Source: Eledone cirrhosa
Taxonomy: Eukaryota
Direction of reading: 5' to 3'
Length of the DNA: 64,000 nucleotides
Assembly: GCA_964016885.1 (NCBI GenBank)
Contig: OZ024743.1
Coordinates: 58,962,001-59,026,000 of the forward strand
The translations under genes and the position numbers were made by a program. Below, one piece after another: positions 27,574 through 39,088 of this stretch (positions are counted from its first letter, which is position 1; each line of letters starts with the position of its first letter). The notes beneath the pieces were generated by a model that was given only the letters and a program-made list of their open reading frames with translations, did no database searches and was not told the origin of the DNA.

Positions 27574-27678
27574 ATTTCTTGCAATGGTCTGGACATCTGT
27601 TAATAACACGTCCACATGTTCTGCAACTATCACGATTGGCGTTCTTGTCGCAATAATCATCAGTCCTTGTACTAATAT
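27574..27678 (-). CDS. Cys-rich ShK-like exon, variant A: ISTRTDDYCDKNANRDSCRTCGRVINRCPDHCKK
   Basis: ttttctttaaccag acceptor, gtaaga donor, 105 nt, phase 1-1. Confidence 0.75.
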
Positions 27679-29364
27679 CTGGTTAAAGAAAATGAATATG
27701 ATCGTGCAGAAGATATTTTCGATATTATATGTTAAGTAGTTAAGTAGACTAAACAATGATTAATATGGCATATCGAATGCACGTGGTTTAGTTATTATTG
27801 TATTCGGCTCTCGGTTGCATGATTCTGATTTCTATTTCCGACGCCACGTTGGACTCTTTGGCAAGACACTTCATATATAGTATATTATTCTATGTACTAT
27901 ATTCTATGTACTATACATGCACCTTTGACGAGTTGTAGTGCACTTGAGCACTTTACCCAATAATTTCATTATTATTATTTATATCACATTGATCCAGCTT
28001 ATTCAGCTGGCAGAAAAGAGTTTTATATGGAGAACCGGCAGTGTATACACATGTCCCGGTCAAAGTTCCATGAGATCTACGTTAAAGACACAGGCCACTC
28101 TTGGCTATACCATTATTCCAATCGCTGGTACAATATAGTCGGAACCGATAGAGTTCCCATTACAAAACTATACCATTGATTTGAATTGCAGTATGATGTA
28201 ATATAATGTGTTGTATTGAACTATTTTGTTATGTGCTGACTTACAATGTATAATACTTTTATACTGTAATGTATCGCATTATATAGTACGTAAACAGCCA
28301 CTTCAAAGTGGTTAAGTTCATTGTTCACAAATACATTAACCATTACAACTTGTGCAAACATGTATCAAAGTGCATCTTGTGCTACGCTCACTCAGTATAA
28401 CCTCAAACTCGAAATTGCCAGTGAGGGTGTCATATATATAGAGATTCCTGAATATTTTCAAAATCATACACTATTTCAATTATAAAAATATAGCAACAAA
28501 AGAGTTCGTACCACAAATAAAAAATCATAATATTTGAATTACTCCATTGACTAATGGCAAAGATATTGAATCAAATACATAGGAATTGGAAAGTCCCTCT
28601 GTCTATTTTGACAATCAGTGTTCCACGTATTTGTTCCACGGAAATGCTTGTTCGTATAATTAACGTGTATGTGGCTCATACTTTCAAAGATACGTGTATC
28701 CTGAATCCAAGTGAGATTCAACGCAGCAAAGTATCTATGCTGGCTTCAACACAGTTTCTATCTAATCAAATTTATTTATAAGGTCGTAGGTGGATTAGAG
28801 ATCATGATAAATGGAACTTTCCCAATATGCGTCGCAGTGGGATTGAACCATGAACCTAATGATTGCATCCCCGAAATACCTTATTTAAACAGCAAACAGG
28901 ATTATAATTTAACATATTTTATAAGAAAACAGTTCATAATTTCGCCTAACAGATTTGGCAGAAATCCCACCACCTCTTCCTAAAAGCTCCTCCCTTCAAC
29001 AAGTAAGAAGACTTAACTATCGGCGCGAGTGAGTATTTGTATTAAATACAACACGTGCTAATAGTTAGTCTCATATTTGAATTTGATGTGTAAACACAGA
29101 TAGTTAATTCTTCTTCCTTGTAGAAAATCCAGGATTTGGCTACTGGCGTTTACCAATCGATTAATTGGTGAAATACATTTCTTTAATGAAATATATACAA
29201 GCAAGATTAATCAATCAATAAGGTATCTAATTTTGAAGTTCTAGTTAAACTTTAATTAGTTACCCACATAGCTGTGTGTGCTTGCACACTTTTACAGATT
29301 ATCCCCTGTGATTGTTTCATATGTTTATTTTAAATATATATATATATGTCAATCAATTTCTAGT

Positions 29365-29417
<53 letters not shown>

Positions 29418-29782
29418 TATGTACACGTACTACATATATGTGTACAAACGTACAGTAGTATGTATATAATTACATACATGCACACATATATATATGTACG
29501 TATGGGTTTTCGGTACGCCCAGCCGACTAACTCACTCGATATGCAAATTAGGCTGCTAGCGTTAATATGCATAAGGAAATTATATACTTTCAAACGTTCA
29601 ATCATCTGACAGAAAGGTATACGATGCTGACGATAGCTAATAAGCTTGAAACTAGTACATCGTTCCTGTGCCAGTGTTGAAAACAGGGGCGACAATGGTT
29701 GCCGAGCACAGTACGGCGTTATCCGTGCAGTTTGTTTACAAACACACCGAACATAATAATAAATGTTCGGTAAACCCATACG

Positions 29783-29844
<62 letters not shown>

Positions 29845-31192
29845 CATGTATGTATATATACACATACTACTGTACGTCTGTACAGATATATCTATGTACG
29901 TGTACATACTTATATTTAGGTATCAGCCGTACTAAGAGTGAGAAATGAAATTTCGTTTCATTCTTTTCACCATTGAAAGGCAAATATTCTAAATGGTAAA
30001 CATTTTACTCCTCACAGCGACTGGAATAATTAGTGTCACAGGCATAGATCCCTACATTTATTTAGTGGTAGATATTGTCTGGTAGTGATAAACTCTGCAG
30101 ACTGAATAAGACGGCATCGTTGAACCATTCACTTTTGCTGAACACTAATAACATGTTGAATTACGTCGAATATGTTGCCTTTAAACGTTAGAGATGGAGG
30201 TCGAAGTGCATTGTCCATGATCATGTTACCGGTTTTCTGGCCTGAATGTTTCCAGTAAAGCAAATTCGATAAAAGCACAGCAGACGATGTTAAGCCACTA
30301 GTTGAAATTAGCATGATACCCATGTGGGTGACAGTTAGGTTTGAATGCGGAAGAAAGAAAACAAAAAAAAAAAACGTTTCCTCTGATTCTCCAACACTTT
30401 CAACAATCTCTTGTTTTGAATTACTATTTTGTTTTATCGAACTCCAATAAAATGAAGGGCAACGTTAACATCGACAGGATTTGATGTTGGATAGTAGATG
30501 ACCTGAGCAAATACCACAAGGTAATTTCTCCTTCGCTGTACGTTTTCCTCCAACGACATTGATCAAACAATCAATTGAGTTTATAGAGAAGATTTCCAAG
30601 GCCAAGTGACTCTCGTGAAAGAGCTTTATGTGACCCTAGTTTAAAAATAGATATGACAATCAATTTCCCCTTTGGCAAAATCCCTTGAAACTTTAATGTC
30701 ATTATGGTGAGTTATATAGTGACACATTGTGTAACAATGCTGCCTTTCGAATTAGAATTACACTCCATTTGTACGGCTTCCAAAATGTTTTCGTCAACTC
30801 AAATTCATTCATTAGGCATGGGTGGACTCAAGGTTATGGTTAAGGAAACTTGCCCAATATAACTTACAGTGTGATGGAACCCCCCACCAAATATAATTTT
30901 GTTTCTACTAGAGGCATAAGGCCATCAATTTGAAGAGCAGGGGAATGTTGATTATATTGACCCCAGTGCATACTGGTACTATATTTTATCGACCCCGTAA
31001 AGATGAAAGCTGAGCTAACGGGATTTGAAATCAGAATGGAAAGGGCCGTAACTCTATGCTGCGAAGCATGGTCTCCGCCGCGCTAACGATATACTGCCAA
31101 ATAAATAATTTAGACAACAAAACAGCATTATAACAGACATACTTAAATGGAAAAAAAAAAAAAAAATATAGAAAAAAAAAATTTATTCTTAC

Positions 31193-31297
31193 ATTTCTTG
31201 CAATGTTCTGGACATCTGTTAATAACACGTGCACATGTTCTGCAACTATCACGATTGGCGTAACGGTGGCAATACTCATCAGTCCCTGTACTAATAT
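31193..31297 (-). CDS. Cys-rich ShK-like exon, variant B: ISTGTDEYCHRYANRDSCRTCARVINRCPEHCKK
   Basis: Intact splice sites and open frame. Confidence 0.7.
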
Positions 31298-36963: not shown

Positions 36964-36999
<36 letters not shown>

Positions 37000-37417
37000 G
37001 TATGTAGACGTACCTACATATATGTGTACAAACGTACAGTAGTATGTATATAATTACATACATGCACACATATATATATGTACGCATGTGTTTTCGGTAC
37101 GCCCAGCCGACTCACTCACTCGATATGCAAATTAGGCTGCTAGCGTTAATATGCATAAGGAAATTATATACTTTCAAACGTTCAATCATTTGACAGAAAG
37201 GTATACGATGCTGACGATAGCTAATAAGCTTGAAACTAGTACATCGTTCCTGTGCGAGTGTTGAACAAAGGGGCGACGTACGAGCACAGTACGGCGTTAT
37301 CCGTGCAGTTTGTTTACAAACACACCGAACATAATAATAAATGTTCGGTAAGCCCATACGTACATACATATATATATATGTATATGAGAAAAACCACAGA
37401 CCCTCCATCTCAACTTA

Positions 37418-37455
37418 CCTTTTGAAAAGCAGAAGAACTGCGAAACCGGTAAAGG
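37418..37455 (+). ncRNA. Duplicate of the 33523 hammerhead-like motif
   Basis: Exact copy at +3895. Confidence 0.5.
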
Positions 37456-37585
37456 AACCAAATAAATATATATATTTAAAAAAAAAATAAGACTCCAGTT
37501 GCATTTTCGATTTCATCCCTTTTCTTTATACTTCCACTCGTGTAGGACACCTCGGTTATTTTTCATTTTGTAAAAAAAACCTCAC

Positions 37586-37634
<49 letters not shown>

Positions 37635-38983
37635 CATGTATGTATATATACACATACGACTGTACGTCTGTACAGATATATCTATGTACGTGTACATACT
37701 TATATTTAGGTATCAGCCGTACTAAGAGTGAGAAATGAAATTTCGTTTCATTCTTTTCACCATTGAAACGCAAATATTCTAAATGGTAAACATTTTACTC
37801 CTCACAGCGACTGGAATAATTAGTGTCACAGGCATAGATCCCTACATTTATTTAGTGGTAGATATTGTCTGGTAGTGATAAACTCTGCATGCTGAATAAG
37901 ACGGCATCGTTGAACCATTCACTTTTGCTGAACACTAACAACATGTTGAATTACGTCGAATATGTTGCCTTTAAACGTTAGAGATGGAGGTCGAAGTGCA
38001 TTGTCCATGATCATGTTACCGGTTTTCTGGCCTTAATGTTTCCAGTAAAGCAAATTCGATAAATGCACAGCAGACGATGTTAAGCCACTAGTTGAAGTTA
38101 GCATGATACCCATGTGGGTGACAGTTAGGTTTGAATGCGGAAGAAAGAAAACAAAAAAAAACAAAACGTTTCCTCTGATTCTCCAACACTTTCAACAATT
38201 TCTTGTTTGAATTAGTATTTTCTTTTATCGAACTCCAATAAAATGAAGGGCAACGTTGACATCGACGGGATTTGAGGTTAGATAGTAGATGGCCTGAGCA
38301 AATACCACAAGGTAATTTCTCCTTCGCTGTACGTTTTCCTCCAACGACATTGATCAAACAATCAATTGAGTTTATAGAGAAGATTTCCAAGGCCAAGTGA
38401 CTCTCGTGAAAGAGCTTTATGTGACCCTAGTTTAAAAATAGATATGACAATCACTTTCCACTTTGGCAAAATCCCTTGAAACTGTAATGTCATTATGGTG
38501 AGTTATATAGTGACACATTGTGTAACAATGCTGCCTTTCGAATTAGAATTACACTCCATTTGTACGGCTTCCAAAATGTTTTCGTCAACTCAAATTCATT
38601 CATTAGGCATGGGTGGACTCAAGGTTATGGTTAAGGAAACTTGCCCAATATAACTCACAGTGTGATGGAACCCTCCACCAAATATATTTTTGTTTCAACT
38701 AGAGGCATAAGGCCGTCAATTTGAAGAGGAGGGGAATGTTGATTATATTGACCCCAGCGCATACTGGTACTATATTTTATCGACCCCGTAAAGATGAAAG
38801 CTGAGCTAACGGGATTTGAAATCAGAGTGGAAAGAGCAGTAACTCTATGCTGCAAAGCATGGTCTCCGGCGCGCTAACGATATACTGCCAAATAAATAAT
38901 TTAGACAACAAAATAGCATTATAACAGACATACTTAAATGGAAAAAAAAAAAAAAAATACAGAAAAAAAAAGTTTATTCTTAC

Positions 38984-39088
38984 ATTTCTTGCATTGTTCT
39001 GGACATCTGGTAATAACCCGTGCACATGTTGTGCAACTAACACGATTGGCGTAACGGTGGCAATACTCATCACTCCTTTTATGAATAT
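38984..39088 (-). CDS. Cys-rich ShK-like exon, variant D: IHKRSDEYCHRYANRVSCTTCARVITRCPEQCKK
   Basis: Intact splice sites, open frame, all 5 Cys kept. Confidence 0.75.

Follow-up and report, generated by a model that had tools for sequence, protein, structure and literature searches.

What is an array of small, cysteine-framed exons doing in the tail of an astacin protease gene, and has selection shaped it? The array lies in a 64,000-nt stretch of the genome of Eledone cirrhosa (C4:58962001-59026000 of a 3.0-Gb genome; this is the window, and its positions are used below unless a C-prefixed one is given). The original prediction, made from the letters of the window, had described it as four ShK-like cassette exons on an astacin scaffold, produced by intragenic duplication, positively selected and possibly related to venom or defence. 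Judged from the sequence, we put it at somewhat better than even that the repeats are predicted exons, multiplied by duplication, framed by cysteines and likely descended from ShK, that belong to the tail of an astacin gene whose product is likely a non-cutting, probably secreted binding protein with a surface that is likely diversifying under positive selection.

Self-comparison of the window placed a tandem repeat at ~26.3 to ~41.3 kb (26329..41283). It contains four 105-nt exon candidates on the minus strand, cassettes A (27574..27678), B (31193..31297), C (35088..35192) and D (38984..39088), spaced 3619, 3895 and 3896 nt apart. All share an acceptor (ag/AT), a donor (T/GTAAGA, the slash marking the splice site) and phase 1-1; these, like all exon and splice-site calls in this study, are predictions from sequence. 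The exons and their five invariant cysteines were borne out, and the earlier hand counts were exact: A and B differ at 9 nt (7 amino acids), and B and D at 10 nt (8 amino acids, with one synonymous change). In the flanking 220 nt, A and B show 2 differences upstream and 2 downstream; B and D show 9 and 8. Four copies are indeed present, but B and C do not differ in the exon, its flanks or along 4015 contiguous positions, leaving three distinct copies in the window. Copy C would be a duplicate of very recent origin or one made in the assembly; because it is identical to B, we excluded it from every rate test.

The cassette and the exon that encodes the zinc-binding motif (the zinc exon) recur in two further genes ~150 and ~310 kb away, forming a three-gene tandem cluster in which paralogs 2 and 3 show 2.4% and 4.2% divergence in collinear DNA; the gene in the window is paralog 1. 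The cassette rate tests used six distinct copies: A, B, D, A2 and D2 of paralog 2, and the cassette of paralog 3. Comparisons with D2 used 140 nt of upstream flank; its 900-nt upstream flank was not homologous. The tree length of the six copies was 0.59 for the exon versus 0.083 for the intron (1223 columns), and parsimony required 53-55 steps on 105 exon nucleotides versus 100-104 on the intron columns, a 5.9-6.4-fold rate. Without paralog 3, the steps were 26 versus 69 and the rate was still 4.4-fold (P 1e-9). In 14 of the 15 pairs, which are not independent of one another, the exon was more divergent than its flank (P<0.05); D-D2 was the sole exception. The exon-over-intron excess on which the original prediction had staked its case is therefore present.

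This excess lies mostly in amino acid replacements. In codon models (GY94 fits), omega across the six copies was 3.1-3.3 (P 0.043-0.045), and the site model M2a was preferred over M1a (P 0.007-0.009). Between A and B, synonymous change came to 0.5 and replacement change to 8.5. Of 102 cassette sites, 38 vary, spread evenly over the three codon positions (12/13/13), and the five cysteine codons are identical in all six copies. Replacement change in the cassettes thus exceeds both flank and synonymous change.

The cassette had been singled out as the selected module, and on this point the original prediction is not supported as it stands. Between paralogs 1 and 3, the catalytic exons carry 59 replacement and 5 synonymous differences (omega 4.7, P 0.002; M2a, P 6e-8). 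Catalytic exon 3 (18/67 nt) matches the cassette in divergence (P 0.73), and 21/97 nt differ in the terminal exon. The cassette does change faster than the pooled catalytic exons (31/105 versus 65/611, P 2e-6). That the protease exons show selection too argues that it is gene-wide rather than specific to the cassette.

The astacin scaffold itself was confirmed. The zinc exon matched Pfam Astacin (PF01400) at E 1.8e-21, with 77 bits against a cut-off of 22.5, and its best matches in the PDB were BMP1 and tolloid-like 1. The gene runs on the minus strand from catalytic exon 1, which lies 2-87 nt past the right end of the window and encodes RRKR preceding the mature N-terminus of the astacin domain, through exons 2 (59439..59565), 3 (56096..56162), 4 (the zinc exon, 52619..52822) and 5 (50102..50228, ending in YKCG in phase 1). 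An exon with six cysteines follows (45646..45750, phase 1-1), which we label EGF-like from its cysteine pattern and position; it had no Pfam match. Beyond the cassettes lies a terminal ShK exon (24744..24840), one base shorter near its 5' end than that of paralog 3. Entered in phase 1, it encodes one cysteine and reaches a stop after 13 codons. An assembly error was considered as the source of this frameshift and rejected: a short-read contig of set X1 crosses the site with no gap at that point, the contigs show the exon in its shortened form too, and all three paralog types are present among them.

The zinc exon, with the motif HELGHVIGLVKQH, has lost a metal ligand. Aligned with BMP1, it places a lysine at the third zinc histidine, and the motif HExxHxxGxx(H/D) is accordingly broken in paralogs 1 and 2 (HELGHVIGLVK), while paralog 3 keeps it (HELGHTIGLLH, within HELGHTIGLLHQH). 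The Met-turn SxMxY is present as SIMHY in all three. In metzincins, the third ligand is described as histidine or aspartate (PMC3427221). Because lysine replaces this histidine, the product is likely non-cutting. The residue directly after the third ligand (52787-52789) is glutamine in all three paralogs and glutamate in the other astacins examined. Cysteines of the mature domain stand at 42, 65, 84 and 195 in paralog 3 and at 8, 42, 72, 83, 84 and 195 in paralogs 1 and 2; one was lost and three were gained, with an even count in both cases (6 versus 4). Exon 3 accounts for the missing canonical cysteine (mature position 65 in paralog 3) and for the new ones at 72 and 83. The canonical disulfides of astacins are C42-C198 and C64-C84. 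A protein search with the zinc exon gave 115 matches among 337 candidates, with a best identity of 60% and no named cephalopod, and one with the paralog-3 zinc exon gave 5 matches among 156 candidates and no close relative; both are weak negatives.

The paralogs differ in their modules. Paralog 3 (C4:58678700-58723000) carries two Pfam-positive ShK exons, a single cassette, a 105-nt sister of the cassette exon that we call shk2, and a terminal ShK exon that is intact; no EGF-like exon was detected in it. Its two Pfam-positive ShK exons are duplicates of each other, one of them with phenylalanine for Cys4 and still above the Pfam cut-off. In paralogs 1 and 2, both upstream ShK exons are missing and the terminal exon is frameshifted (16 nt short in paralog 2); the two genes carry four and two cassettes, respectively, and paralog 2 shares the lysine and has the EGF-like exon. 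Three distant astacin-EGF-ShK genes of the same genome (C1:408520000-408570000, C4:26325000-26358000 and C21:20111000-20122000) have 17 canonical six-Cys ShK domains (8, 5 and 4) and keep HExxHxxGxxHE, which argues that lysine at the third ligand is the derived state. ShK matches were also seen on C27.

Duplication within the gene, as originally proposed, is supported. The exon shk2 is an ungapped homolog of the cassette with equal splice geometry (52/105 nt). It is intact only in paralog 3, and in the window a 3' remnant of it persists at 28940..28988 (minus strand), with further remnants at 32558-32606, 36453-36501 and 40155-40208 in the other units. Short-read contig sets X1-X3, all from one sample, cover introns evenly and therefore behave as DNA rather than RNA. 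Contig depth was 34-43 in shared intron contigs versus 11-16 in single-gene contigs; depth does not equal copy number, and the ratio is only a hint of ~3 copies versus the 4-5 in the assembly. Some contigs (28617-28813) link an A/B-like upstream intron to a D-type 195-nt deletion, a hint of hybrid units or array polymorphism, with chimeric contigs also conceivable. In every unit, an AATAAA lies 5 nt inside the intron past the cassette donor and is followed by a T-rich run (27560-27573 in the first), which might permit intronic polyadenylation or have arisen by chance.

Is the module ShK? Pfam ShK (PF01549) returned zero families for A, B, D, the paralog-3 cassette and shk2, and for neighboring exons of paralog 3 it returned E values of 1.1e-7 and 4.1e-4 (above the cut-off) and 0.065 (below it). 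Of the six-Cys ShKT pattern, Cys1 is absent, the spacings Cys2-x8-Cys3 and Cys4-x3-Cys5 are present, and there is one extra cysteine; the predicted donor splits the Cys6 codon, which is completed only upon read-through. Spliced shk2 would have exactly four cysteines; it also lacks Cys1, and its predicted donor also cuts the Cys6 codon. Against a hidden Markov model built from the 17 ShK domains of this genome, read-through cassettes scored at P 0.003-0.04 relative to full shuffles and at 0.18-0.47 relative to shuffles that kept the cysteines. The likeness noted earlier is thus real in that four or five cysteines lie in the Cys2-Cys5(Cys6) register of the genome's own ShK domains, but there is no Pfam match and the signal is one of cysteine spacing only. 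The cassette exon also stands among ShK exons in paralog 3. Cys1 and Cys6 are described as a disulfide pair in ShK, and ShKT domains lacking just these two occur in snail astacin-ShK proteins (PMC6409789). We conclude that the cassette, formally not ShK, is likely a degenerate ShK-derived module.

Other searches added little. In the Atlas, the rank-3 cluster of B scored 0.89 and had 11% ShK members, with no usable match for A. A structure model of the cassette had three helices at pLDDT 75; Foldseek gave zero matches for this model and for a Pfam-positive ShK control alike, and the best VIA-align Z scores were 2.4 and 3.2, respectively, with ShK listed in neither case. As the true ShK control also failed, the fold searches are uninformative. 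A cassette profile searched against 1.84 billion representatives gave two matches, both unrelated repeat proteins, and a protein search with the ShK alignment gave one match among 51 candidates and no close relative, a weak negative.

The explanation that we favor would work as follows. Each cassette would be spliced in tandem at T/GTAAG, losing Cys6 in addition to Cys1, its disulfide partner in ShK. The II-IV and III-V bonds that remain would then support the fold, leaving the extra cysteine free for bonds between modules or chains. Unequal crossing-over would have amplified the unit. The driver would be a fast-changing foreign or conspecific protein, for which prey, pathogens and gamete coats are candidates only.

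Several observations weigh against this explanation. The dN/dS test proposed in the original prediction is significant across the six copies and loses significance without paralog 3 (P 0.22) or when limited to the distinct copies of the window (P 0.25). When differences at most 3 nt apart were merged, six of eight pairs stayed at P<0.05 (A-A2, 0.10; D-D2, 0.67). None of the 14 forms of the cassette or shk2 that were scored showed significant ShK similarity beyond cysteine spacing, profile-profile comparison with ShK by hhalign gave a probability of 0.6%, and the cysteine count of the spliced cassette is odd. The loss of activity rests on one residue. Signal and pro-peptide exons were searched for upstream and none was located, and for this reason secretion is predicted from the astacin family. 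The lost ligand and the frameshifted last exon also fit recent decay.

If decay were the answer, paralogs 1 and 2 would be recently dead or dying, their fast change would date to the time of an active protease, and the array would reflect neutral drift in copy number. We regard this as improbable. In its favor, both paralogs share the lost zinc ligand and a frameshifted last exon, B equals C, D and D2 differ at 4 nt (2 synonymous) with no excess over flank, the 5' exons were not located, and A and D may have split either before or after the histidine was lost. The catalytic exons speak against it, as all five are free of stop codons in every paralog, and so do the predicted splice sites, kept in all cassettes. 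Those exons differ between paralogs 1 and 2 at 6/472 replacement sites (P 0.07) and 0/130 silent sites (P 0.04) relative to the collinear 2.4%, a deficit that gene conversion could also cause. A and A2 differ by six replacements and no synonymous change since their split (P 0.006-0.013 versus flank), which suggests that selection went on after the histidine was lost, although this weakens to P 0.10 with clusters merged.

The original prediction allowed for a venom- or defence-related peptide. On this reading the cassettes would act as ShK-type channel blockers, possibly released at the terminal Lys-Lys. We think this doubtful as stated, and a venom role overlaps our preferred explanation, for which it is one possible tissue context. 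An exon that outpaces its introns is described as the classic pattern of snake toxins (PMC7285919), and vampire snail astacin-ShK transcripts are described as mostly salivary-gland biased (PMC6409789). The cassettes are small, with net charges of +3 to +5, but they lack a Pfam ShK match and Cys1, and no adjacent Lys-Tyr lies inside A, B or D; tandem splicing would create KKY over the junction. Selection acts on the protease domain as well, and reproductive and immune proteins show the same selection signature. The Lys-Tyr dyad is itself described as neither necessary nor sufficient for ShK channel toxins (PMC6409789). Venom genes of ancient lineages, coleoids included, are reported to be mostly under negative selection (PMC4619613), and astacin expansions linked to reproduction are described in fish (PMC8127814); venom is therefore not the default reading.

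Less likely again, in our view, is that the cassettes are alternative last exons. Read-through at T/GTAAG would complete Cys6 and yield a six-Cys peptide with a 15-residue hydrophobic tail, one per transcript, making the array a menu rather than a chain. In cassettes A to D and in A2, such read-through gives an even cysteine count, the CxxxCxxC ending and a short tail of equal length. The outgroup gene on C1 ends in a ShK exon of just this form (105 nt when counted from its acceptor up to the T of Cys6, then a stop), and in 13 of 14 non-terminal outgroup ShK domains the predicted donor lies downstream of Cys6. The cassette donor, however, is consensus-like at 7.0 bits, compared with 1.3 at that true terminal exon; it scores above 2 of 22 predicted donors (5.0-11.9 bits, scored in-sample), and 5 of 390 intronic GT sites score as high or higher. 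Moreover, shk2 read-through would give an odd five cysteines, the tails consist largely of poly-T and are not the same in D2 and paralog 3 as elsewhere, and paralog 3 has an intact terminal ShK exon downstream.

Least probable is that no selection acted and that gene conversion homogenised the introns or mutation struck the exon more often, as a hot spot or through multi-base events: intron and exon trees disagree, intron site patterns conflict, 5 of the 9 A-B differences fall inside 7 nt and variable sites are even over codon positions, but synonymous change stays flat while replacement rises (A-B, A-A2 and the catalytic exons, the last at Fisher P 0.002), which argues against both forms of the idea, the cysteine codons stay fixed while the sites around them vary, and the same pattern appears in five catalytic exons outside the array.

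A bolder proposal, which we offer tentatively and think rather unlikely to hold in full, is that an octopod lineage made a display scaffold, a dead enzyme, out of an astacin. The zinc ligand and every canonical ShK domain would have been lost, and one re-wired exon of ShK descent would have multiplied into a positively selected array of variable number. Its members might be used singly, as alternative last exons, so that one gene would supply a diversified repertoire for recognition or as toxins.

Elsewhere in the window, two decayed LINE copies lie on the plus strand at 6900-10700 and 13200-18100 (endonuclease PF03372, E 1e-13; reverse transcriptase PF00078, E 2e-22). Introns of the gene hold GIY-YIG endonuclease fragments at 44136-44636 and 57034-57471 on the minus strand (E 3e-4 and 1e-3, neither reaching the Pfam cut-off), which are likely Penelope-type elements.

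Young paralogs, 2-4% apart in flanking DNA, here probably show neofunctionalisation under way with an internal neutral yardstick; a catalytic ligand has gone, the disulfides are re-wired, exons have been lost reciprocally and the tail has been amplified. The locus suggests that this animal has a protein engaged in an arms race. Salivary expression would run contrary to the mostly purifying regime reported for coleoid venom genes, and expression in gonad or skin would make this a candidate recognition protein. No published account evidently matched this locus, judged mostly from listings, with subscription papers and supplements outside the scope.

Among known systems, the closest are molluscan M12-ShKT proteins, such as CreM12-ShK of the vampire snail and Pf-ALMP of the pearl oyster, whose description in PMC6409789 includes an astacin domain, a cysteine array, tandem ShKT modules (some without Cys1 and Cys6) and lineage-specific expansion, with up to four repeats in Octopus bimaculoides. 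They are described there as keeping HEXGHXXGLXHEH, where paralogs 1 and 2 have lysine at the third histidine. Unlike them as so described, the modules of paralogs 1 and 2 are Pfam-negative with an extra cysteine, the canonical ShK exons of these two genes have either gone or suffered a frameshift, and positive selection was measured. The distant astacin-EGF-ShK genes of the same genome (C1 408.5 Mb, C4 26.3 Mb and C21 20.1 Mb) share the module order and one ShK per predicted phase-1 exon, but differ in their intact zinc motif and canonical ShK domains, and their zinc exon is only 44-49% identical. The cassette profile also aligned with the ShK-like domain of MMP-23 (PDB 2k72) in Cys2-Cys6 register, at an E of 1.3 that ranks below four unrelated short matches and is not significant alone. 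In AMZ1, as described in PMC3427221, the third histidine is likewise a non-ligand residue and activity is doubted; AMZ1 is an archaemetzincin, and a variable repeat tail is not described in the available text of that source. Snake venom PLA2 genes are described as having mature-protein exons that outpace introns, with KA near or above KS (PMC7285919); the family is unrelated, and for PLA2 venom-gland expression is known. The architecture is that of molluscan M12-ShKT proteins and the exon-over-intron divergence that of snake toxin genes, while the astacin zinc motif and the six-Cys ShKT pattern are both broken; the locus therefore resembles known molluscan astacin-ShK proteins, in altered form.

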